A stretch of 64,000 bases of DNA from Candidatus Latescibacterota bacterium (GCA_965208835.1 OZ242358.1:5024001-5088000), one strand, 5' to 3'. Numbered from the stretch's first letter, positions 1 through 47,457 are shown. Numbers and translations: made by a program. Notes: generated by a model from the sequence alone, not told the origin.

Positions 1-427
1 GGTCCGTGTTCAGAAACAGGAATCCCGGCACGCTCCAGGAGGTCCGCACGCCCGGCAGGTATTTCATTACCTTGGCGTCGCCCCCCGCGTTGAAGCCGGC
101 GACCAGGGCGAAGTCCCGAATGGGACCCACGCGCACTTCTTTTCTCGACAGTTTGCCGAAGCTCAATGTCGGATACCACTCGGAATAGAAGTCCCTGTCG
201 TTGAAGCCGTCGCTGCCGCTGTCGTCGATGTAATCCAGAAAAAAGAAACTGTCGCCCAGTTTCCATCTGGACGCGTTCTGCACGGTAAACACGAGCGTCC
301 ATTCGTCGGTCCCTGAGAATGGATTCAGGTGTGAACCGTATTGAAGGTGAAACTCGGTCTGCGCGATCGCGGAGGTCCTCGCGGTAAGCAGCAGAACAAC
401 CAAAATTCCGGTGTATGCCTTTTTCAT
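1..427 (-). CDS. Tsx/DUF5020-like outer-membrane channel, N-terminal part (runs off the window)
   Basis: Manual translation from ATG 427: MKKAYTGILVVLLLTARTSAIAQTEFHLQYGSHLNPFSG...WKLGDSFFFLDY...DFYSEWYPTLSFGKL. Signal peptide followed by aromatic beta-strands typical of Tsx-like porins. Confidence 0.7.
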   Translation of the reverse strand, partial: MKKAYTGILVVLLLTARTSAIAQTEFHLQYGSHLNPFSGTDEWTLVFTVQNASRWKLGDSFFFLDYIDDSGSDGFNDRDFYSEWYPTLSFGKLSRKEVRVGPIRDFALVAGFNAGGDAKVMKYLPGVRTSWSVPGFLFLNTD

Positions 428-616
428 AACGAAATCTCGTTGCGTTATTGGATCTGCAATTTGCCGGGATTGCTGATCGGAGTGGGTTTATTGCGATCGC
501 CAACTTTGTCGGAAGCCTTGCCAGCCACAATTGCTCGATAACGGTTTGGTGAAACAATGCAGCCGGACGAAAGACGTCTAATGGTAGACCCGTAATGACA
601 ACATTGCAGATTCGGA

Positions 617-1720
617 CTATTCCCTTATTGTCCAAAGGTCAAACTCATCCTGAGGTGTTGTTTTGCTACGAGAAAAGCTATCTGCCTGCCGGCGGCCTTC
701 ACGTGCCGATCCCGCTGCGACACGAGTCTGTATTCGCCACCCTGAGTCACGGAGCGAAAGTTGTAATATCTCAAAGGGATCAGCACGGCGGTCGTTAATG
801 CCCCCGAACCGGATTACGAGACGGGCATCCGATACCGCTTTTTTTGCACAATTGCTCCACACTCGGTGAAGGTCTGCGGCGAATATCTCAGGACTGCTAT
901 GTTTTAGCTGACCCGTCTGGCAATAGTCTACTGAATCAGCCCCTCCCAAGAACCATAGTCTTAGCCATTGGTCTGGCATGTAGGTGCGCATTCCGTAGTA
1001 GGGTGGCGACGTAATGAACCAATGCACGTCTTCTGACACACCAATGAAGGCCCTGGATCTTCGGGCGTCGCCAAGCCACACGTTTCCGATGCTTGTCTGC
1101 AACTCCGAACTAAAGAAACGGGTCGCTCGTCTTAAAACGAGCTTCCTAATGTCTACGCAAGGTGGACATAGCCCTCTTGATTCCCAGAATCTCACTGCGT
1201 AAGCCGGCTTTGGCGCATACGTCCGCGGCGATTGGTTCGAAAAATGTGAAGGAACCGTCGGTGTTAATGGGCCATGGAGTGCCCCAAGAATGATGGCCCT
1301 TAATGCATTCTTAGGTGCCGTGTCGCATCTATCAAGGAATGCCTCGCGCAATACGCAAAGTGTCTTCAAGACGGACTCATGGTATGCAAGTTCCCAGAAA
1401 CGGGTATTGGGGACGTTTCGAGGCTTGGTTTCTTTTGACAGACACATATTCAGTTCGTCCATAATCTCGTCCGGAGTCACTGACAGGAGTTTCGCATGTG
1501 AAATTGCAACGGCAAGGGGATGGCTATCGATTCCCTGTGTCGGTAGTCCAAGCAGGCGCGCAGCTAGATTTGTAGTACCACGCCCACAGAAGGGGTCAAG
1601 CACCCATTGTCCAGGAATAGCTCGTCTTTGAAGAACAGACAGGGGAAACCGGATTGGAAACATCGTGAAGTACGGACAGATCCCATTTAACATTCCCTTG
1701 CGGTCCGCAGTCGATGACAT
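617..1720 (-). CDS. Amino-DNA methyltransferase (probable m4C, alpha motif order)
   Basis: Motif I DPFCGRGTT near the N-terminus; motif IV ITSPPY late in the protein. ATG at 1720 overlaps the herA stop (TAATG). Confidence 0.88.
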   Translation of the reverse strand: MSSTADRKGMLNGICPYFTMFPIRFPLSVLQRRAIPGQWVLDPFCGRGTTNLAARLLGLPTQGIDSHPLAVAISHAKLLSVTPDEIMDELNMCLSKETKPRNVPNTRFWELAYHESVLKTLCVLREAFLDRCDTAPKNALRAIILGALHGPLTPTVPSHFSNQSPRTYAPKPAYAVRFWESRGLCPPCVDIRKLVLRRATRFFSSELQTSIGNVWLGDARRSRAFIGVSEDVHWFITSPPYYGMRTYMPDQWLRLWFLGGADSVDYCQTGQLKHSSPEIFAADLHRVWSNCAKKAVSDARLVIRFGGINDRRADPFEILQLSLRDSGWRIQTRVAAGSAREGRRQADSFSRSKTTPQDEFDLWTIRE

Positions 1721-3807
1721 TATGCGGCATCTCCCGCTTTCACCCAAGTTGCGTTCGATGACGAACTCTTGTAGGTATGCCAGCCATCCGGACGTTCGCT
1801 GAATGTTTCGTCAAGAGCCTTGGGTACAAGACGATAGGCGATATCATCACGATTATCCAATTCGTCAGGCAAGATCTCACGAAAAAATGCATTTAACATC
1901 CCCCACGGCGCACCTTTTGTGCTCACACGTTCCTTTAGATCGCTCTGCGAAAATTCCAGAATCGCACGGGCTTCGAGCTGTCTTAACACATCTAAAGGAG
2001 GCGTTTCATCGTCGTCCTTGGTTACGTCTTCTTTGTCGTCAGCGGAATCATTGCCGCGACCCGCTAGTCCAGCGAACTGTCTCCGCAGTGCTTCAGCGTA
2101 CGTTGGTGCTGCCGGCTTATTGTATTCCGGATCACGGAGATTATGAATTGCTTCGAATGACACAACTCGAATCGGAACCGGGTACGGCTTACCCTCCACA
2201 GAACTCCAAAATACGCCCTGTCCAGGAATGGGTTCGTTCAATAGTACGCTTAGCAAGTCATCACTGAAATGAGCGTTAGCCCGGCGTACATTCCCGAGGT
2301 CTCCGCCCGAAAGCAGATGAAAGATGAACCAATTATCACCTTGGCTTAGAATCTCATTCGGGATACTTCCGGGCTGTTGGGTTACCAGAACAGTGCCAAG
2401 GTCGTACTTCCTGCCCTCCTTGACCCACGCGATATAAGGCTCTGCTGCTGTACCGGACTCATTTAGAACTGCTTGGGCCTCTTCAACGACAGCGATTGTC
2501 GGGATAGTCTTGGGATCGGCGGAGGTGAACTCTTCCTGATTCCTATCAAAGATACGACGCAGTATGAGACCCGATAGAATCAGTGCCTGCCCACCTCGAA
2601 GCTGGGACAGGTCGATCACACAAAGTCTCCCGTCTGCAAGAGCTGCCATCAGCATGTCCATCAGCTGGCTGGATGGGTCGTGAAGCATTCGCACAATTGT
2701 AGTCGCGTTGGCCCTAGCTGCCAACGCCTCAACCTCTTGTCTGTCGTCTAACTGTAGAAGCTCCACAATGTCTTGCAAAGGAGCGTCATTACCATCCTTA
2801 TGAATGAGATCCACGAGTCGTTCCCACCGATCAGCATTTAGTGCACGTAACTTTCTAACATTTTGCTGATCTTGACGTTCTGGGGATAATGCGATTCCGA
2901 TGACATCTGCGGGGCGTAAGCGTCGAATATCCAGTTTGATGCCGCCTGCGACGAATGACTGATAAAACGAACTGGGGCTTCTTCTTGGAGTAAATACCAC
3001 AAGTTTGTCTTCAAGTCCTTCAACGTCACAAAGCCCTGGCCGCCCCTTGTCATCAGGCCAGAAATATTCACCATCTGGATCAAAGAGAATGGTTCCCACG
3101 GGAACACGCCGTCCCTGTCGCTTTTCGACTGTTGGAATGCTATCGTACAATCGGCTGAACAGGAGTTTGTTTAGATTGGACTTGCCGAAACCGGCACGAG
3201 CGAATATAAGAGTTCGTCGTGAAACCAGACTTCCAAGTGCGAACCGAACCTCTACTTCTTCGTCCTGTAATTGCATCCATGACTCTGCATCTTCTCGGCA
3301 CGGTCCGTATATGTATTCCCCCATGGCCAGATGCCCTATCAAGGCTCCATTCACATTGTGGCCTGAGATCTCCCTAAGAACGTCGCCGGATGGAAACGCT
3401 ACCGGACTCCCAACGTGGGGAAGCCTACGATGCGAGGGAACAAATGTCAGCCCGTCTTCATTGCGTCGGAGAACGCCAAGCACACGAATGTTGACCCTGT
3501 ATTTTAAATAATCCTCTCGAAGATTCTCCGGTACAGCGCGGTCCTCGCGAACTGCTCTGATGTTGAATTCTTCGCCACTGCCACTCGCCAATTTTCCCTC
3601 GGACGAAAGGGAAGTAATTCTCCCTAGCACCGCTTCCTCAGGCGATTCGAGCTGTACGAGGACGAATTGCCCGTGCATAGGCGTGCTCTGAAAGTCACTT
3701 CGATATGGTAGGGCGAGATCAGCGTGAAATTCTAGCCCGCCTTCTCGGAATCCCCGAAATACTCCAATGACGTGGTGACGAGGAAAAAGCGTTAAATCGG
3801 CGGCCAT
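1720..3807 (-). CDS. herA: HerA/FtsK-family ATPase (HAS barrel + DUF87)
   Basis: Walker A ARAGFGKS, FDPDGEY, Walker B VVEEAQ, arginine-finger EGRKY, VTQQP; AGGAG RBS overlapping the nurA stop. Confidence 0.92.
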   Translation of the reverse strand: MAADLTLFPRHHVIGVFRGFREGGLEFHADLALPYRSDFQSTPMHGQFVLVQLESPEEAVLGRITSLSSEGKLASGSGEEFNIRAVREDRAVPENLREDYLKYRVNIRVLGVLRRNEDGLTFVPSHRRLPHVGSPVAFPSGDVLREISGHNVNGALIGHLAMGEYIYGPCREDAESWMQLQDEEVEVRFALGSLVSRRTLIFARAGFGKSNLNKLLFSRLYDSIPTVEKRQGRRVPVGTILFDPDGEYFWPDDKGRPGLCDVEGLEDKLVVFTPRRSPSSFYQSFVAGGIKLDIRRLRPADVIGIALSPERQDQQNVRKLRALNADRWERLVDLIHKDGNDAPLQDIVELLQLDDRQEVEALAARANATTIVRMLHDPSSQLMDMLMAALADGRLCVIDLSQLRGGQALILSGLILRRIFDRNQEEFTSADPKTIPTIAVVEEAQAVLNESGTAAEPYIAWVKEGRKYDLGTVLVTQQPGSIPNEILSQGDNWFIFHLLSGGDLGNVRRANAHFSDDLLSVLLNEPIPGQGVFWSSVEGKPYPVPIRVVSFEAIHNLRDPEYNKPAAPTYAEALRRQFAGLAGRGNDSADDKEDVTKDDDETPPLDVLRQLEARAILEFSQSDLKERVSTKGAPWGMLNAFFREILPDELDNRDDIAYRLVPKALDETFSERPDGWHTYKSSSSNATWVKAGDAA

Positions 3808-3816
3808 GTTTTCTCC

Positions 3817-4962
3817 TTAGTACCTGCGTCCAGAAGTGTCAACATCCTGAAATTGGAACGCATCCAATGTTGTAGCTTCTCCAGCCAATACATCTCTAAG
3901 CCCAGAAAGGACCTGATCTTGAAGAACATCGAAATCAAAGTCGACGAGGGCAGCGTTTTCGTGAGCCCTTTGAAGGCAGCGCGGATAGAAGGGAATTGGG
4001 AACCCATCGACCGAGTCGGCGAGCAGACAACCAAGGATTACTTGAGCCTGTGCCCGCTGTGGTAGAAAAATGTCCACTGGCCATATTGGATCACTTGGGC
4101 GGCTACCGAATTTTACAAGGTGCATCTTACCACCTACGAATTTGTTGATTTCCCCACCGGGAATCTCCTCGTCGTCGCCCCTTGCATATTCAGACCAAAC
4201 ATAGGCGGCCTCTTCAAGTGGTTGCGGAACTGCGAGGTATGCAGGGTACTCTGTGGTTAGGACCCTCTCCAGTGCCATTGCCAAACGGTATCGGTCAAGC
4301 ACCTTACTGTGTTTCGCTAAACCCACAAGAAAGATGCGGCGCCGATTCTCATTCCACTCTTGAGCTATCGCTTCCTCTAATTGTTTCAAGAACTTTCGAA
4401 ACAAATCTTGGGCAAAGACCTTGCTTCGTAGCAGGCCGTCGCAGACGATCATCGTGTCGGTGCCAAAGTCCTTGTCCCGAATCACGGTCAGCAAAACTGC
4501 CCATTCCATAAGCTCACGATACACTTGTACCCAACTGGGACTAGTAGGGCGATCTTCGTCATTTAGTCGAATCATGTGGCTAAGTTTTGTGAGGTCAGTA
4601 CCTACATCTAATGCGTCCATGAGTTTGCCTACAGGAGTAAATGGCTTGCCTGATTTATCGAATTGCGTTGTTCCAAGGAGTCGGACGCTAGTGGACGGCG
4701 TTATCGCTTCGAGACAATATTCATTGTTGCTGGAATCCACTACACGAACAAGCTGAATTAGAAAAGGATCGAATTGAACACGGTTATTTCCTCCATCCGT
4801 ACCAACGAGTGATATGGAGGTGGTTTCGCGAGCCTGAATTCGACGTACCTGTGTACGGAGTGGTCTAACCTCTGCACGCAACTTCTGAAGAAGCTGGTAG
4901 TCATCTTGTATACGATTATGAATCTCTCTTCGCAGGAGGCTATGGCTGGCTGGATCTATCAT
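3817..4962 (-). CDS. nurA: NurA-family nuclease
   Basis: VGTDGG, VCDGLL, VGLAKHS and C-terminal YPRCLQRAHENA motifs; lies immediately upstream of herA. Confidence 0.85.
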   Translation of the reverse strand: MIDPASHSLLRREIHNRIQDDYQLLQKLRAEVRPLRTQVRRIQARETTSISLVGTDGGNNRVQFDPFLIQLVRVVDSSNNEYCLEAITPSTSVRLLGTTQFDKSGKPFTPVGKLMDALDVGTDLTKLSHMIRLNDEDRPTSPSWVQVYRELMEWAVLLTVIRDKDFGTDTMIVCDGLLRSKVFAQDLFRKFLKQLEEAIAQEWNENRRRIFLVGLAKHSKVLDRYRLAMALERVLTTEYPAYLAVPQPLEEAAYVWSEYARGDDEEIPGGEINKFVGGKMHLVKFGSRPSDPIWPVDIFLPQRAQAQVILGCLLADSVDGFPIPFYPRCLQRAHENAALVDFDFDVLQDQVLSGLRDVLAGEATTLDAFQFQDVDTSGRRY

Positions 4963-5043
4963 GGCGCCTCGTGAGATTTTGGTTGTATATTATGTAAAGT
5001 GCTGCATTGGGCACAAACTCGAACCTACGAAATAGGAGACGAT

Positions 5044-5814
5044 ATGCTTGGTATCGAACCGACGATCTTGATACTCATTGTGTGTATTGCGATGTATGCG
5101 TGTTGTGAATCGGAAGATTCGCTATCCCATTCGGATAAGGCCGCGTGGGGGTACGGCGCCGATAACGGGCCCGACGTGTGGGGTCGGCTCAGCCCGAACT
5201 ATGCGCTCTGCGCCACAGGGTCGCGCCAATCACCCATTGACCTCCGAAACCCCAGCTCGGCAAGCCTGCCGTCCATCACAATCAACTACCTGCCTACGCC
5301 CCTTAATATCCACAATAACGGCCATACCATAGAAGTTGCTTCCACCGACGAAAACTGGATAGAGGTTGGCGGCGAGAGATACAGCCTGCTGCAGTTCCAT
5401 TTCCACGCGCCATCCGAACATACGGTGGAAGGCAGGTCGTTCGACATGGAAATGCATCTCGTTCACCGCAACGGCGAGGGTGCGTTGGCCGTCATCGGCG
5501 TTCTCATCGAGCGCGGAAGCCGACACATCGCATTCGATCCCGTCTGGGCGCATTTGCCGCAAACGCCTGGTGAAATGAAACGCATCGAAGGCGTCACGGT
5601 CAACTCCGGTGACCTGCTGCCGCGTGACACGCGTACCTACAGGTATGACGGCTCGCTGACAACCCCGCCCTGTTCCGAGGACGTGAAATGGCTCGTGATG
5701 GCGACGCCCGTTGAACTCTCAGAGGCGCAGATTGCCGCATTCAAAGCTATCGTCAACAAGAATAACCGGCCGGTACAGGCGTTGAACGGCCGCGAGATTC
5801 TCACGGATATCTGA
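5044..5814 (+). CDS. Alpha-class carbonic anhydrase, secreted
   Basis: QSPID, NNGHT, QFHFH, SEHTVEG, EMHLVH, GSLTTPPCSE, NNRPVQ. AGGAG RBS before ATG 5044; hydrophobic N-terminus. Confidence 0.95.
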   Translation: MLGIEPTILILIVCIAMYACCESEDSLSHSDKAAWGYGADNGPDVWGRLSPNYALCATGSRQSPIDLRNPSSASLPSITINYLPTPLNIHNNGHTIEVASTDENWIEVGGERYSLLQFHFHAPSEHTVEGRSFDMEMHLVHRNGEGALAVIGVLIERGSRHIAFDPVWAHLPQTPGEMKRIEGVTVNSGDLLPRDTRTYRYDGSLTTPPCSEDVKWLVMATPVELSEAQIAAFKAIVNKNNRPVQALNGREILTDI

Positions 5815-5924
5815 AAGGAAGAATAGACCGGGATTGGCAGGCTGAAGAATTGGGGGAAGGAATTCTACAGTTCTAAATTCGTGTCTGCGGTTATTGGACT
5901 TCAATGCTTCCATTCTTGTAGCGT

Positions 5925-7229
5925 TCAGGATTTCCCCGGTACAGGTATCCCGTAACGATGCAAAGTGCTTGAAAGCGTGGGACGCCCCAGGCGAATCCTG
6001 CCGTCGTTCAGCAGGTATGAGAACAGATACCCGACGCCGAGCATGAGAATTCCGATGAGGAAACAATACATGACGGCTCTGTCGGGATAGACGTCCTTGA
6101 GATACCCCACGTACAACGGACCCGATATACCGGCGGCCGCCCAGGCCGTCAGGACGGCGCCGTAAATCGTAGACATCTTCTTTGTGCCGAAGACGTCCAG
6201 AACGAAGGGCGGCATGGTCGCGAATCCGCCGCCGAAGCAAAGCAGGACGTAACATACGAGGGCGGAGAATATCCAGGGATTGGTCTCCGTCATGAGGATG
6301 CCGAAGACGACCATCTGGCTGGCGAGGAGAACCCTGAAAACCGTGACCCGGCCGAAGCGGTCCGAGAGCAGTCCCCAGAACAGACGCCCCAATCCGTTGC
6401 AGATCGAGCTGACGGCGATGAGCGTGGCGCCGTATTCGGCCAGCGTGCTCGGCTCGATCGTACTATCAGCGAGGCCCCAGATCTCCTGGAGGATTTCCGA
6501 CTGGAAGCTGATGACGGAGATTCCGGCGGCGATGTTGAAGAAGAAGACGATCCACATGATGACGAACTGGGTCGTCTTGAGGTACGTTACGGCGGAGTCC
6601 GGCTCCCCGTAGTCAAAAGCATCATCGGCTGTACCGCCGGCGGGAGTCGCGGACGCAGGCGGATCGCTGAGGGCCAGGCTGCACGGGAGCAGAATGATTC
6701 CGAATATGATCCCGAGCCAGATGAAGACGAGCGGGAGTGTGCCATGCGTGGTTACGATTAAAAACGGCGCCAGCCCCTTGCTCAGCAGGAAGGCGCCGAC
6801 GCCGAAGCCCATAACGACGATACCGGTGGCCAGTCCCTTGCGGTCCGGGAACCACTTTGCTACCGTGGCGACGGGTGTGACGTACCCCAATCCGATTCCC
6901 GCGCCGCTTATCACGCCGTAACCCAGATAGAACAGCCAGATAGAATCCAGTTGCAATGCCGCGCCCGAGATCAGGTAACCGCCGGAAAACAGGATGCTGC
7001 CGGTTACCGCCAGGAATCTTGGGCCCAATCGCGAGAGCATATTGCCCGCCCAGGCCGCGGAGACTCCCAGCGTAAAGATCGCGATACTGAAGGCCCACGC
7101 GGTTTCGGTATGGGTCCAGCCGCCCTGACGAACCAGGATCGTCTGGAAGAAACTCCAGGCGTAGACCGTGCCGAAGCATACCTGCAGAACCGTGCAAAAG
7201 AGTGCGATAACGCTTCTTGGAATGCGCAA
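5925..7229 (-). CDS. MFS transporter, OFA (oxalate:formate antiporter) family
   Basis: GTVYAWS, KWFPDRKGLATG, GRLFWGLLSDRFGR, CFGGGF; about 12 hydrophobic segments. Confidence 0.9.
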   Translation of the reverse strand: MRIPRSVIALFCTVLQVCFGTVYAWSFFQTILVRQGGWTHTETAWAFSIAIFTLGVSAAWAGNMLSRLGPRFLAVTGSILFSGGYLISGAALQLDSIWLFYLGYGVISGAGIGLGYVTPVATVAKWFPDRKGLATGIVVMGFGVGAFLLSKGLAPFLIVTTHGTLPLVFIWLGIIFGIILLPCSLALSDPPASATPAGGTADDAFDYGEPDSAVTYLKTTQFVIMWIVFFFNIAAGISVISFQSEILQEIWGLADSTIEPSTLAEYGATLIAVSSICNGLGRLFWGLLSDRFGRVTVFRVLLASQMVVFGILMTETNPWIFSALVCYVLLCFGGGFATMPPFVLDVFGTKKMSTIYGAVLTAWAAAGISGPLYVGYLKDVYPDRAVMYCFLIGILMLGVGYLFSYLLNDGRIRLGRPTLSSTLHRYGIPVPGKS

Positions 7230-7244
7230 CGCCGCGTCCTCCGA

Positions 7245-7988
7245 TTAACCTGGCCTTTCCGCCGACCCTCCCGGTCCCCCAACGCCAGGCGAATTCCCCG
7301 ATATATGCCGGAACAACCGGGCGAGGTCGCCTACTTCATCATCGCGGGCGAGCAGTTCGTCGTCGTCCTGCTTATCCCGCTTTCGATCGTCGGCCAGATC
7401 CACCGCGTAGGAAAGAAGCCCTCCCAGCGGTTTTGCGGCCAGGTTGACCAGCCAGATCGAAGCCAGCACGCCCACAACGAGAAAGATACTGATGAGAATG
7501 ACCTGCTGGCCGATCGCGCGTTGAATCTTAAGTGCCACGATGTCCAGGTCCATACCGACGTGAACCGTGCCGGCCACTCCGGCCAGGATCGGGCTGCCCA
7601 CCTCAAGGAAATCGCCCAGACCCGGTATGTTTCGTTCAACAGGTTCGGTATTGGACGGATCGCTCGCCAGAATCTCTTCGGGGATTCCCGGAACGAAGGT
7701 ATGCGCCAGGTATTCGCCCTTCTCGCTGGTAATATAAATGTAGCGTATGCCCTGAATCTCGACGAATTGATCGATCATCGACTGCAGCGTCGCGAGATTC
7801 CGGTTCAGGAGGATGTCCACACTGGCGTTGGCGATGGTCTTCGCGATGTCCTTGCTGTTGGACGCGTATTCGGCCGACAACTGCGTGTCTACCGTGTAGA
7901 TGCACAGGAAAGACGTCGACAGTACGATCAGCCCGAAGAGCGCAAAGATGCCGAATCGGGTCTTCTGAAACAGCCTTTGTATTTTCAT
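7245..7988 (-). CDS. Two-TM sensor-like membrane protein with HAMP domain and no output domain
   Basis: Two hydrophobic helices flank a periplasmic domain; HAMP-like KPL...RDDEVGDLARLF is followed only by a short Gly/Pro tail and the stop. Confidence 0.75.
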   Translation of the reverse strand: MKIQRLFQKTRFGIFALFGLIVLSTSFLCIYTVDTQLSAEYASNSKDIAKTIANASVDILLNRNLATLQSMIDQFVEIQGIRYIYITSEKGEYLAHTFVPGIPEEILASDPSNTEPVERNIPGLGDFLEVGSPILAGVAGTVHVGMDLDIVALKIQRAIGQQVILISIFLVVGVLASIWLVNLAAKPLGGLLSYAVDLADDRKRDKQDDDELLARDDEVGDLARLFRHISGNSPGVGGPGGSAERPG

Positions 7989-7989
7989 A

Positions 7990-9357
7990 TTACGAAAGCC
8001 AGCTTTCCCAGTCGTTCAGAGTGACGAAGCGGCCGTCCTGAACGACGGTATAGTAAACGGTTTGCAGTCCCTGTCGACGGTCGGGTCCGAATGAAACTTT
8101 CTCCCCGATGCCGAGGTCGAAATTCCGGACCGAGAAGACCGCGTCCTCCAGCCCGGCCCTGTTGGGATTGTCTCCCAGGCGCCTGAGTATCTCGGTCATC
8201 AGCTTTGCGTCGAGAAAACCCTCCAGGCTGACAAAGCTCTGCTCGAACGGACTGTAGGGCTCTTTGACAAGTTCCTCGGGAACGGCCGGGTTGTAGCGCG
8301 CCATCAACTCGCGGTACTCTCTCACGGCAGGAATGGACGTGTCTTCATAGCTGGGCACGACCTGGGAGTTGACGAGGTACTTCGTATAAGTCTCCGCGTC
8401 ATCCCGGCCCTCACTGAGCAGATGCAGCAGATTCTCGCTGCCAACAAACGAGAGATTGGCGATCGGCACCTTCAGGCCCAGGTCGATCGCGTCGCGGGCG
8501 AAGGCTGCGCACGCGGCGTATGATCCGATGCAGATGACGGCGTCCGGAGAGGCCTTCTTCAAGATTTCAACCTGCCGCCTCATGCTTCCGGTGAACCTTT
8601 GACCCCGCCGGTAGGTCGCCTCGCCGGCGATTTGTCCGCCGTGCACCTCGATTGCCGCCCTCACACCCGCCCATCCGCTGCGTCCGTACGCGTCGGCCTG
8701 GTAGAACACGGCGATCCGCTTTCTGCCGGTCCGAACGAAGTTGTTCACAAGGCCGGCGGTCTCCTGGCGATAGGACGCCCGGAGGTTGAACGCGAAATCC
8801 CCATAGGGCGGCTCCCTCTGCGGCTGGGCGCCGGTAAACGGGAAGAACAGGTAGACCCGCTGGTCCTGGAATTTTTTCAGCAGGGGAAGCGCACGAGTAA
8901 CGGTGGGCGTGCCAACGTAGCCGAAAAGCAGGAAGACACGATCCTCGATCATGAGTCTCATGGTGTTCTTTACACACGGATCCGGCTGGTACCCGTCGTC
9001 GTACAGCTTGAAGTCTATCTTACGGCCGCCAACGCCGCCATTGTTATTGACATGGTTGAAGTAGGATTTGGCTCCTCTATAGAGTTCGCTGCCGAGCCCC
9101 CGGGAGGGCCCGGAAAACGCGGCGGACATACCCAGGACGATCTTGCCGTCATAAACGCCTTCAAAACCTTCGCCACTGCCCGAATCATCCGGTAAAACCC
9201 TGCCTGAACCGCCGTCCTGGGCTCCAGCGTCCTGCCAACTTCCCCAGGATAACGCCAGCAGCCCGAGTAAACCTCGACGGAGCATCGACCTTCGCGTAAG
9301 ATCGGACGCCTGGCCGCCCCGCCCGTCGTGTCCCTCGGTGCAATTGGGAATTCTCAT
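7990..9357 (-). CDS. Periplasmic binding protein, type I (LivK/LivJ-like)
   Basis: IVLGMSAAFSGP, GGRKI..YDDGYQP, GYVGTPT, FNLRASY; twin-arginine-like TRRSML; GAGGAG RBS before ATG 9357. Confidence 0.88.
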   Translation of the reverse strand: MRIPNCTEGHDGRGGQASDLTRRSMLRRGLLGLLALSWGSWQDAGAQDGGSGRVLPDDSGSGEGFEGVYDGKIVLGMSAAFSGPSRGLGSELYRGAKSYFNHVNNNGGVGGRKIDFKLYDDGYQPDPCVKNTMRLMIEDRVFLLFGYVGTPTVTRALPLLKKFQDQRVYLFFPFTGAQPQREPPYGDFAFNLRASYRQETAGLVNNFVRTGRKRIAVFYQADAYGRSGWAGVRAAIEVHGGQIAGEATYRRGQRFTGSMRRQVEILKKASPDAVICIGSYAACAAFARDAIDLGLKVPIANLSFVGSENLLHLLSEGRDDAETYTKYLVNSQVVPSYEDTSIPAVREYRELMARYNPAVPEELVKEPYSPFEQSFVSLEGFLDAKLMTEILRRLGDNPNRAGLEDAVFSVRNFDLGIGEKVSFGPDRRQGLQTVYYTVVQDGRFVTLNDWESWLS

Positions 9358-9396
9358 TCCGCTCCTCGTCAACTGAAATGCGGCTTGCCTGAATGC

Positions 9397-9585
9397 GGGT
9401 AGAGGGTAGACCAAAGGCGGTGAGACGTAAGCCGGGAGAGGTTAGAGATGTCCTGCCTCGTGAGGATTCTTTTCGTGCCGAAGGCAACGAGGAATTAAAT
9501 ATCGGGCGAGGATATCATCTACCGTCTACCCTCTCACCTCTACCCACCTTTCTTCTACCGTCTACCGTCTCCCGTCTACCCGCTT
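9397..9585 (+). repeat. Dispersed intergenic repeat family A, copy 1
   Basis: GAGACGT(A/G)AGCCGGGAGAG...TCGTGCCGAAGGCAA...GGCGAGGAT..TCTACCGTCTACCCTCTC; similar copies at 23831, 25548 and 52977. Confidence 0.85.
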
Positions 9586-11169: not shown

Positions 11170-11362
11170 CGAAGCCTCCTGGTCAGTTGGTTGTCCTCAT
11201 TGAGATTCTCGCAGGAATCCCTAATTTATAATGCAAATTATCAGATTAGTCAATGTATTTGGTTGAATCTGCCCCGAAACGGCGCGCATAATCCCCAAGC
11301 ACATATAATCTCTGACGAACTTCCGCACCCGCCCTGCCGAAGGCGTCGCGACACATTCTCCT

Positions 11363-45208: not shown

Positions 45209-45253
45209 ACCGATCGTTTTTGCTGTCCATAAACCTCTCCTTTGGGGGATAAG

Positions 45254-46138
45254 ATGAGCGTTATCAGTATCATAAACCGGTTTCCAACACAGGAAAGTTG
45301 CATTGAACACCTGGAAAAAGTCCGGTTCGGAGATGAGCCGTATTGCCCGCTGTGCGGTGTTGTCGGGAAATGCAAGCGCAAACAGGAAAAGAACCTGGTT
45401 GGACGCTGGAACTGTCATTCCTGCAAATCATCATTCAACGTCCTTTCGGGCACCGTTTTTCAGGGCACACACGTTCCCCTGCAGAAATGGTTTGTGGCTA
45501 TCGAATTGATGCTCAACGCCAAGAAATCGCTGTCAAGCCCGCAACTGGCGCGCGATGCCGGACTCACGCAACCCACGGCGTTGTTTGTACAGAAGCGCAT
45601 ACGCGCGGAAATGGCCTCCAAGCAGGGCAAGATGCTGTTGCAGGGCATCGTAGAGGCAGACGAAACCTATGTCGGCGGCAAGCCTCGCAAGCGCAACAAA
45701 CGCGATGGCGACAAGCCTTCGAAGCGAGGCCGTGGAACGGACAAGACGCCGGTTATCGGAGCGGTCGAAAGGGACGGTAACGTTGTCGCTCGTGTCGCCG
45801 ACGATCTGACCGGCAAGGGCGTTTTGGCCTTCGTGCAGGATCACGTCACGCCTGAAGGATCGGTCTTGATCACGGACGAATACGGCGGATACAACGCCGT
45901 TCAGGGCTCGTACGAGCATCACGTCATCAATCACGCCCGTGAATATGCCCGTGAGGGCGGAATCCATACCAACACGATTGAAGGCGTCTGGAGTCTGTTG
46001 AAACGCGCCTGGTACGGATCCCATCATCACTACTCCAAGAACTACACGCCGCTGTACGTCGCTGAAGCGGTCTACAAGTACAATGCCCGCAAGGATGAGC
46101 TCCCGTTCTACACTTTCCTAGACGGATGCTTCGCCTAA
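45254..46138 (+). mobile_element. IS1595-family transposase
   Basis: Zn ribbon CPLCG...CHSC; VEADETYVGG, KTPVIGAVER, LITDE, HHVINH, HTNTIEGVWS.LKR. Confidence 0.93.
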
Positions 46139-47457
46139 GCGGCAAGCGGTATCTCGACGCGCCTGCCTGCGAAATAGTCCTCCACCGTGTATATCTGCAC
46201 GCACGGCGCGCCCTTGTATTTCCCCGCACTCGCGGCCGTGTCCCGCATCCCCTGAGTTACCCGATCCTCAAAACACGTGAACACGCCTAGGTCGGCGTTG
46301 ACCTGTTGACGTGCGGTATTGAACGCCTGCACGTCTCGCGGCTGCGTATGCCCGCCCTTCACCTGCGAGACAACGTCCAGGAACACGCCCTTGCGGATCG
46401 GGAACCGGCCACGCCCATCGATCCCGCCGTCCCCAGTCTGCTTAACATTCGGCGATACGCCATCCACCAGCGAGGCCGCCCACCGCTCGAACTTGAACGG
46501 CTCGCGCTCGGCAAGGACACGCGCGTCCGGTCCGGTCTTTGGCATCCCGTTGAAATCCACCTGGAAGATGAAGTCCTCAAACCGGTCGCACAACCGCTTT
46601 TCGATGATCTTGCAAGCGTTCACACACACGTCTATCCCGATCCAGTTGCGATTCAAGCGCATCGCAGCTTCAATCGTCGTTCCGCATCCGGCGAAAGGAT
46701 CAAGCACAATATCGCCTGGGTTACTGCTCGCCTTTAGAATCCGCTCAAGCAAGGCAACGGGCTTCTGCGTGGGATAGCCCAGGCGTTCCTTTGCGCTATT
46801 TGTCAAAATTGGGAGTTGCCACCAATCAAAAGGAATCCGCCCCAAGGGGTTCATCTTTGTGTAAATTCTATCGCCAACTACTTTCGGGGTTCGTGACTTA
46901 TGCGGAGACGAATAAGGCTCTCTTACCGCATCGACATTGAATTTCCAACGTCCAGACGCGGAAAAAAAGAGGATAGTGTCATGCTTGCGGGAATAGTGCC
47001 GCTTGCTCGCCCCGCCGGAACCATAGCACCAAATGATTTCGTTCACAAAGTTTCGAGAAAACACCCCATCCATGACAACCTTCAAGTAATGACTCATCGT
47101 CGGATCGCAGTGCAGGTAAATTGACCCCGTGTCCTTCAGGACGCGCCTGCACTCCCGCAGCCTGTTGGCCATGTAGGACAGATACGCCAGGTTCGACCCT
47201 TCGCCCAGGATGAGGCGCAGGCCTTCCATTGTCGGCGCGAGCTCTGAATCCTGGGCAACATCATGGAAATCGTCTACCGCCTCACTCCACCGCCAGGTGT
47301 CGTCAAAGGCTACCCACTGCGCGCCGCCGATGTAGGCGTTGTAGAGGCGTTTTGAGTTGAAGGGCGGATCCAGATAGATCAGGTCAACGCTCTGATCGTC
47401 TATATCTTCCCGCATCACGTCCAGACAATCGCCGAAATACAGCATGTTGTTGCCCAT
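46135..47457 (-). CDS. Beta-class N6/N4 DNA methyltransferase with C-terminal Mrr-like domain
   Basis: LIYLDPPFNS, GYPTQKP..LLERI, VLDPFAGCGTT; then FERWA...GDGGIDG...VSQVKGG (D-x(n)-QxK). Confidence 0.88.
   Translation of the reverse strand: MGNNMLYFGDCLDVMREDIDDQSVDLIYLDPPFNSKRLYNAYIGGAQWVAFDDTWRWSEAVDDFHDVAQDSELAPTMEGLRLILGEGSNLAYLSYMANRLRECRRVLKDTGSIYLHCDPTMSHYLKVVMDGVFSRNFVNEIIWCYGSGGASKRHYSRKHDTILFFSASGRWKFNVDAVREPYSSPHKSRTPKVVGDRIYTKMNPLGRIPFDWWQLPILTNSAKERLGYPTQKPVALLERILKASSNPGDIVLDPFAGCGTTIEAAMRLNRNWIGIDVCVNACKIIEKRLCDRFEDFIFQVDFNGMPKTGPDARVLAEREPFKFERWAASLVDGVSPNVKQTGDGGIDGRGRFPIRKGVFLDVVSQVKGGHTQPRDVQAFNTARQQVNADLGVFTCFEDRVTQGMRDTAASAGKYKGAPCVQIYTVEDYFAGRRVEIPLAA

Follow-up and report, generated by a model that had tools for sequence, protein, structure and literature searches.

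What does a HerA-like ring ATPase paired with a NurA-like nuclease do when the next gene encodes a DNA methyltransferase, and does the methyl mark decide which DNA the nuclease will spare? These questions are raised by three adjacent genes (a nurA-like gene, a herA-like gene and a methylase gene, positions 617 to 4962) in a stretch of 64,000 nucleotides from a Candidatus Latescibacterota bacterium (GCA_965208835.1 OZ242358.1:5024001-5088000), which is called the window hereafter, at its full length. The cassette is probably a self-contained, horizontally mobile defence system of the restriction-modification (R-M) kind, in which the methylase would mark self DNA and a motor-nuclease of the TdpAB type would destroy DNA that is not marked. 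This reading is favoured because TdpA and TdpB, a proven restriction module, are the best sequence or profile matches and the best fold matches of the second and first genes, because the catalytic residues are intact and invariant, and because two-way synteny, mobility, an empty site in relatives, defence neighbours and the one-step decay of a copy in genome G016 all point to it. The identity of the three proteins, their intact catalytic residues, the tight two-way linkage across phyla, the recent acquisition and the defence neighbourhoods elsewhere are seen directly.

A foreign insert of three genes

The insert, its genes and their junctions are as follows.

430..5025 (boundaries about ±30 bases), no strand: foreign insert, from blastn of the flanks against same-genus genomes (alignments A1 and A2)
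4962..3817, minus strand: nurA-like gene (gene 1), 381 amino acids, a NurA/TdpB-like nuclease with predicted catalytic residues D56, E153, D175 and H334
3808..3819, minus strand: nurA/herA junction, with the TAA stop, GGAG, the 5-nucleotide spacer AAAAC and then the herA ATG, read in the sequence
3807..1720, minus strand: herA-like gene (gene 2), 695 amino acids, a HerA/TdpA-like hexameric-type DNA translocase ATPase with a barrel (residues about 1-170) and an ATPase core (about 190-560)
1723..2004, minus strand: C-terminal domain of the HerA-like protein (residues 602-695), four helices and a beta-hairpin, winged-helix-like, with a predicted local distance difference test score (pLDDT) above 90 in the AlphaFold2 (AF2) model
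1718..1722, minus strand: herA/methylase junction TAATG, in which the herA stop overlaps the methylase start, read in the sequence
1720..617, minus strand: methylase gene (gene 3), 367 amino acids from its ATG, a permuted N4/N6 amino DNA methyltransferase with motif I DPFCGRGTT (residues 42-50) and motif IV SPPY (238-241)

A sequence-only reading of the window had described three coupled, co-directional genes, with TAAGGAG uniting the nurA stop and the herA ribosome-binding site and TAATG joining herA to the methylase, and it had named the principal motifs of the three products. All of this is borne out: the genes lie on the minus strand at the same coordinates, both junctions can be read in the sequence, and GTDGG (residues 54-58 of gene 1), the Walker A motif GFGKS (206-210 of gene 2), FCGRG (44-48) and SPPY (238-241 of gene 3) are all located. 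The open reading frame (ORF) lister places the methylase start at TTG 1747, and the length of 367 residues corresponds to the ATG start. The TAATG overlap is read as translational coupling of herA and the methylase. A promoter and terminator scan of 300-5200 returned sites that are no more numerous than in shuffled sequences, and none at the operon ends.

How did the three genes come to this place? The flanks are conserved within the genus (84-95% identity), and in the closest relative, G011 (93-95% over the flanks), homology ends at window position 393 and restarts at 5032, with 200 bases between. The same site measures 231 bases in G002 and 166 bases in G004, against 4638 bases in the present genome, and because of this short gap in same-genus relatives the insert is exactly the three genes, with an outer-membrane-type gene (start 427, minus strand) on one side and an alpha-carbonic anhydrase gene (ATG 5044) on the other. 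The block had also been said to be more AT-rich than the genes that follow. Its GC content is indeed 0.505 over 430-5025, compared with 0.595 for the whole 5.18-Mb genome, and when the genome is divided into 1127 tiles of 4.6 kb only 1.2% reach so low a value, while GC at third codon positions is 0.46-0.50 in the cassette genes and 0.69 and 0.77 in two flanking genes. The cassette is thus a recent, precise, horizontally acquired insertion. Neither an integrase nor terminal repeats accompany the insert, its target site is not clearly duplicated, and its non-coding ends are not conserved across loci, except for a 73% match to the G016 remnant. With three genes only, it holds no cognate restriction endonuclease, as the sequence-only reading had noted, and a hidden classical endonuclease was rejected on the same ground.

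The distribution of the family is wide and patchy. The present NurA form occurs in none of 14 other genomes of the genus, of which G002 has a form about 37-38% identical. Within the host's class, 8 of 132 genomes, belonging to 5 of 31 genera, have NurA-like genes. When species-representative genomes were scanned, 191 NurA relatives were confirmed, and the best 80 of these (61-70% identity) come from at least eight phyla, including Chloroflexota, Bacteroidota, Cyanobacteria, Pseudomonadota, Verrucomicrobiota, Planctomycetota, Bacillota and others. A tblastn search with the cassette family against 72,556 plasmids and 50,697 phage records had no match, and a scan of IMG/VR found relatives on 5 contigs only.

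At the right-hand border, the carbonic anhydrase ORF (4999-5814, plus strand) is listed from GTG 4999, and conservation with relatives starts at AGGAGACGAT-ATG. Its true start is probably ATG 5044, and 4963-5043 would be part of the insert or a rearranged intergenic region.

Kinship of the nuclease, the ATPase and the methylase

Gene 1 has no match in Pfam (the NurA model included), PADLOC or NCBIfam, nor to any PDB chain in a single-sequence search. It is a real gene, since 3324 homologues reach E≤1e-3 among 7999 candidates scored (414 clusters at 50% identity). When a profile of 48 relatives was compared with the PDB, TdpB (8wet_G, E 2e-12) was the sole significant match, and TdpB again came first when the AF2 model (pLDDT 88.6) was submitted to Foldseek (E 4.7e-11, template modelling scores 0.60/0.63), followed by the NurA proteins of S. 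solfataricus, T. kodakarensis, P. furiosus and D. radiodurans. The three NurA motifs, I (DG), II (DG) and III (LxxAHxxxA), as defined in the available text of a 2026 review (PMC13748450), are all present as GTD56G, CD175G and L330QRAH334ENA. All 81 close relatives compared have the same residues at D56, D76, E153, D175 and H334, and these are mostly retained in a wider set (n=48).

Gene 2 matches PF01935 (DUF87, 2.7e-21), and the genome has no other strong DUF87 match, the only further one, of 22 bits, lying in an 815-residue frame. Its best PDB sequence match is TdpA (8wet_A, 4.5e-21), and TdpA (8wfd_A, 2.8e-29) also heads the Foldseek results obtained with its AF2 model (pLDDT 82), before archaeal HerA and the HerA proteins linked to Sir2 or DUF4297. 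Identity to TdpA is only 22-24%, and with 53-57 bits for the NCBIfam HerA equivalogs, whose cut-offs are 800-970, the protein falls outside all named HerA families. No substitution is seen in 71-72 relatives at its key residues (Walker A K209, Walker B E442/E443, and R466).

The alignment with TdpA stops at residue 553 of gene 2 (TdpA chain residue 579/586), and the C-terminal domain, which follows an acidic linker disordered in the AF2 model (residues 585-601), is absent from TdpA. No other part of the pair varies as much as this tail (mean pairwise distance 0.58, compared with 0.22 for the core), which is retained in all aligned relatives, including DruA-linked and methylase-distant variants. 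None of 17 tails could be placed in a Pfam family at meaningful E-values, and the protein atlas gave no usable match for the domain.

In the methylase, motif I precedes motif IV by about 190 residues (FCGRG 44-48, SPPY 238-241), which is the permuted, alpha-class order, and therefore the Pfam model PF01555, built in the beta order, matches the motif-I segment only (residues 16-72, profile positions 161-217 of 221). The protein also matches the PADLOC MTase_II model (2.8e-17). Across 40 methylase sequences D42 to T50, S238, P239 and P240 never change and large indels are absent, which argues for an active methylase with a conserved mode of target recognition. As a rule, SPPY favours N4-methylcytosine (m4C). 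The sequence-only reading had called the pattern alpha-class m4C, of which the motif order stands; as to the product, the profile search, confined to the motif-I region, matches beta-class enzymes of both the m4C (8s9n) and the N6-methyladenine (m6A; DpnA, CcrM, MboIIA) kinds, so that m4C and m6A are not separable from sequence.

Could the pair be a canonical NurA-HerA that resects double-strand breaks as a housekeeping task, with the methylase as an accidental neighbour? The NurA fold and motifs and the HerA fold would suit such a role, and the sequence-only reading had indeed taken the pair for the end-resection NurA-HerA. That attribution has to be given up, as the PDB sequence, profile and fold matches all place the pair closest to TdpAB and not to repair enzymes. 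Moreover, the present form is missing from all 14 other same-genus genomes and its site is empty in relatives, so that it is neither part of a repair locus nor passed on by vertical descent; it arrived in a recent insert of foreign composition; it has a conserved methylase linkage and no linkage to mre11/rad50. The absence of mre11/rad50 (sbcCD) from the window had been asserted before, and it holds for sbcD, which a TIGR00619 search did not find there (two weak matches below the cut-off lie elsewhere in the genome, at C1:2.14 Mb and 1.17 Mb), sbcC not having been searched. A canonical repair role is scarcely credible, and it was rejected on distribution. Since the pair is closest to TdpAB, a close mechanistic precedent exists for the restriction reading.

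Linkage, exceptions and defence neighbourhoods

If the methylase and the motor-nuclease work together, are they also inherited together? Forward synteny was scored at the best 80 of the 191 loci, nine of which are too short to judge the methylase, leaving 71 assessable. The herA gene follows nurA in 79/80 (the remaining locus ends 30 bases past nurA), and the methylase lies directly downstream on the same strand in 59/71, elsewhere in the locus in four and is absent from the locus in eight. For the reverse direction, a metagenome scan seeded with the methylase gave 438 relatives and 80 loci, 72 of them with at least 300 bases upstream. In 69 of these 72 herA lies upstream (66 directly, three by a shorter match), three having none, and nurA and herA are both present at 48 of the 50 methylase loci with at least 3.4 kb upstream. 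Conservation of the three-gene order (63/71 forward, 69/72 reverse) thus agrees with what had been anticipated, and the possible objection that nurA-herA pairs usually lack the methylase does not hold.

The eight methylase-less loci group together in a single shallow clade, which branches from within lineages that bear the methylase. Their catalytic residues are intact, and 6/8 of their genomes carry a full-length methylase of the family (45-47% identical) elsewhere. Both the shallowness of the clade and the methylases found elsewhere speak for the restriction reading. In four genomes the relocated gene shares contig and strand with nurA and precedes it by 9.0, 14.8, 15.5 and 15.6 kb; the two genomes in which no methylase was found are metagenome-assembled, and in each the contig reaches only 2-3.7 kb upstream of nurA; and among the eight exception genomes searched there is no complete genome that has the pair and lacks the methylase.

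Between the relocated methylase and nurA lie Type I R-M, GmrSD and Tiamat-like genes, and the two parts of the split cassette seem to bracket a place into which other defence systems are inserted. In locus L210 (G032:C2:100700-117200) the cargo consists of a WYL regulator, Type I R-M (HsdM, HsdS, HsdR) and GmrSD, and in L209 of a Tiamat-like TmtA and a UvrD-type remnant. In these split-cassette islands the relocated methylase adjoins a superfamily 1 (SF1) helicase gene of 1415 residues. Such helicases (1415-1488 residues, with AAA_11/AAA_12 in the last third) recur beside family methylases, with or without nurA-herA, and their first ~900 residues have no Pfam match at E≤1e-5. The genes located are as follows.

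L209, 4847-9091, plus strand: SF1 helicase
L210, 10591-14844, plus strand: SF1 helicase
L057, 2294-6757, plus strand: SF1 helicase
L181, 757-4980, plus strand: SF1 helicase

In L057 such a helicase gene immediately precedes nurA. In L181 and L183, which make up two of the three metagenome loci that have no herA upstream, it immediately precedes the methylase, and herA is absent. The methylase may also work with the SF1 helicase as an alternative partner in restriction.

The methylases also fall into two subtypes, A and B, about 44% identical to each other. Subtype B (L057, L062, L065, L074 and L203-L207, among them the relocated genes), about 44-47% identical to the methylase of the present cassette, is one clade in the methylase tree, and its members sit on nuclease pairs that are scattered across the NurA+HerA tree. 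Pairwise distances of NurA and the HerA core correlate at r 0.96, compared with r 0.71 for the methylase and the pair. This indicates that the methylase module has been exchanged repeatedly relative to the nuclease pair. A further variant has no methylase: in the sibling cassettes of G002 and G024, DruA (PF14236, 1.7e-77) is followed by NurA (37% identity) and HerA (47% identity).

L102 (G002:C1:1688500-1695500), 5613..1214, minus strand: DruA-NurA-HerA sibling cassette
L104 (G024), 5052..9454, plus strand: DruA-NurA-HerA sibling cassette

The cassette of G002 is inserted between the equivalents of window positions 11299 and 11363, about 6 kb from the present site.

Do these variants mean that the pair works on its own? 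An autonomous HerA-NurA would, like RecBCD, attack the free ends of phage or plasmid DNA that enters in linear form, and methylation would not serve it to tell self from non-self; the methylase would be an accessory, for example one that protects the host from co-resident systems or serves the SF1 helicase. Archaeal and Deinococcus NurA-HerA do act on DNA ends, and one clade keeps its methylase 9-16 kb away, beside the helicase. This alternative stays alive because of the DruA siblings, the subtype swapping and the helicase homologues linked to a methylase without herA (L181, L183). It is nevertheless rather unlikely in view of the TAATG overlap, the direct adjacency in 59/71 loci, the presence of herA upstream in 69/72 methylase loci and the lack, among the exception genomes searched, of a complete genome with the pair alone.

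Another possibility is a holoenzyme like those of Type I or III R-M, with the methylase as the subunit that reads the target and recruits or licenses HerA-NurA at unmethylated sites, possibly via the HerA C-terminal domain. Mod-Res complexes offer a precedent, and both the translational coupling of herA to the methylase and the conserved extra HerA domain, carried on a flexible linker and absent from TdpA, would fit. We regard this as less likely still: the domain is kept in DruA-linked and methylase-distant variants, the methylase subtypes have been swapped, and the domain diverges without extra covariation with the methylase (partial r 0.08), which gives no support for an interface between the tail and the methylase.

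A sequence-only reading that speaks of defence also calls for enrichment near defence genes. The neighbours considered were the nearest two ORFs on the left and one on the right at 34 loci (99 of the 129 candidate proteins from 44 loci with full flanks), and a PADLOC model at 1e-10 was counted as a match. Under this threshold 31/99 neighbours match, or 30/98 when the relocated methylase of one cassette is left out, and they are spread over 19/34 loci, with BrxC/BrxF (BREX), Type I and III R-M, TmtA (Tiamat-like), MzaB (Mza) and NsnA (Menshen) among them. In six arbitrary 20-kb regions of the present genome 4/79 ORFs match (odds ratio 8.3), and the expected enrichment is therefore found.

A decayed copy, 83% identical, bears on what happens when the methylase is lost.

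L103 (G016:C1:1470000-1484000), 7875..6563, minus strand: decayed cassette copy, single deletion

The deletion has fused NurA, at residue 275, with the methylase, at residue 196, and herA has been lost together with the catalytic portions of the nuclease and methylase genes. Such joint loss is the kind that is tolerated if the nuclease without its methylase is harmful. Should the cassette then be seen as a post-segregational addiction module that serves chiefly to maintain and spread itself, phage defence being incidental? Its extreme mobility together with very high conservation, its position here as a lone three-gene insert in a housekeeping site, and the loss of all three functions by one deletion would agree with this idea. 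It is improbable, however, given that nothing matched among 72,556 plasmids and 50,697 phage records, that only 5 IMG/VR contigs carry relatives, and that the cassette frequently resides among bona fide defence systems; addiction would, besides, be compatible with defence.

Elsewhere in the window (46135-47457, minus strand) there is a 440-residue PF01555 methyltransferase with a C-terminal domain like Mrr_cat/NA-iREase1, beside an IS1595-family transposase (45242-46138, plus strand), in a patch (44-48 kb) with a lowered GC content of 0.52-0.54. This locus may be a second, unrelated restriction-type element.

Possible reading of the mark and relation to known systems

How would such a system work? 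In the restriction reading, the methyltransferase would put an N4-cytosine or N6-adenine methyl mark on host DNA. The NurA-like nuclease would be docked on the ring of the HerA-like ATPase, as in TdpAB and archaeal HerA-NurA; the ATPase would load on DNA, move along it using ATP and pass the duplex to the nuclease, and marked DNA would be spared while unmarked incoming DNA would be degraded. That the mark protects, how it is read and what the methylase targets are inferred. For its reading one may think of a stalling of the ring, by analogy with TdpAB, of contacts made in the groove by the pore, of the HerA C-terminal domain, or of the methylase itself as a reader subunit.

Several points weigh against this reading. 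TdpA reportedly senses backbone sulfur during translocation, and a ring that tracks the phosphate backbone, as TdpA does, has no obvious way to feel a methyl group in the major groove. The swapping of subtypes and the correlation of r 0.71 are hard to square with a pair that would read one specific methylated sequence. The relocated methylase, up to 15.6 kb from the pair, may serve the adjoining SF1 helicase instead, and the DruA-linked siblings without methylase imply that the motor-nuclease pair has no intrinsic need of a methyl mark. In the present genome the cassette is found among housekeeping genes (alpha-carbonic anhydrase, a major facilitator superfamily transporter) and not in a defence island, and the p-value for the neighbour comparison (30/98 against 4/79) is overstated, several loci being kin and the control coming from one genome.

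The closest known relative is TdpABC, the phosphorothioate-based R-M system of extreme thermophiles, whose TdpAB complex is represented by cryo-electron microscopy structures (8wet, 8wfd, 8y1k). As in TdpABC, described as a compact three-gene system in the accessible part of PMC12914056, the cassette encodes a restriction module of HerA-like ATPase and NurA-like nuclease with a single DNA-modifying enzyme. It differs in that this enzyme is a PF01555 SPPY amino-methyltransferase and not the phosphorothioate enzyme TdpC, with no further gene in the insert; in that identity to TdpA and TdpB is about 16-24% and the HerA has an extra C-terminal domain; and in that its hosts are mesophilic and belong to many phyla, so that a base mark in the groove, rather than backbone sulfur, would have to be sensed.

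With the NurA-HerA of archaea and Deinococcus-Thermus (2ygk, 3tal, 4d2i, 9x1l-n, 7f6d) the pair shares the two folds and NurA motifs I-III, and it presumably has the same ring-plus-dimer assembly. Unlike the end-resection enzymes, however, it is not linked to mre11/rad50, not vertical and linked to a methylase, its nuclease has no Pfam NurA match and its HerA scores far below the cut-offs. In Sir2-HerA (Nezha) and DUF4297-HerA a HerA also drives a defence effector, and a weak likeness of the HerA proteins is visible in a PADLOC score of 63 bits and Foldseek E-values of 1e-18 to 1e-22; in contrast, the effector of the cassette is of the NurA type and a modification gene is present, those systems having no self-marking. 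Membership in them was rejected (NF042943, 56.8 bits vs 800; NF042944, 20.6 vs 850), there being no Sir2 or DUF4297 gene in the insert.

Type I and III R-M systems, which are likewise mobile and found in defence islands, combine a self-marking methylase with an ATP-driven translocating restriction machine. The feature of the R-M class that is found here is a predicted active methylase genetically coupled to a nuclease in both directions. The motor of the cassette is an FtsK/HerA-type ring and not a superfamily 2 helicase, there is no specificity subunit, and the nuclease has the RNase H-like NurA fold and not PD-(D/E)XK. As regards the HerA/FtsK capture systems and DndFGH, the main text of PMC10853773 describes ATPases recruited with nucleases and fast-evolving DNA-binding domains, a theme that the variable, winged-helix-like HerA tail fits; the architecture of NurA-like nuclease plus methylase was not met in that text, from which NurA is absent.

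Is the trio already catalogued? It had been put forward as matching no named system, and this still holds in PADLOC-DB v2.0.0, which has no model for gene 1 and gives weak HerA matches only, and in the literature searched, in which no description of a NurA + HerA + methyltransferase system was found, a prior mention in the Tdp paper or in the supplements of PMC10853773 being possible. Neither HerA nor NurA occurs in the text of the ARMADA preprint.

A broader proposal, which we consider possible though doubtful, is that the TdpAB-type pair is a universal restriction chassis, a processive, sequence-independent DNA-shredding ring that has been coupled repeatedly to identity or sensor modules of unrelated chemistry, namely TdpC and its backbone sulfur mark, base methylation (by the present methylase, in two interchangeable subtypes) and DruA. 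The ring or its C-terminal domain would then read a methyl group as a stop signal, and the cassettes would represent a distinct, widespread, ATP-dependent R-M class without a sequence-specific nuclease.

What would follow if the cassette is indeed the R-M-like defence system proposed here? The proteins are small, highly conserved and derived from mesophiles, and the system should thus be tractable in E. coli. A structural question would be raised, that of how a HerA ring, or its extra domain, senses a methyl group on a base. A widespread class would be added to the R-M systems, in which the restriction arm is a ring translocase feeding a NurA nuclease, and not a sequence-specific endonuclease. 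The TdpAB machine would no longer be a thermophile curiosity tied to phosphorothioation, but a modular effector that reads different DNA marks.

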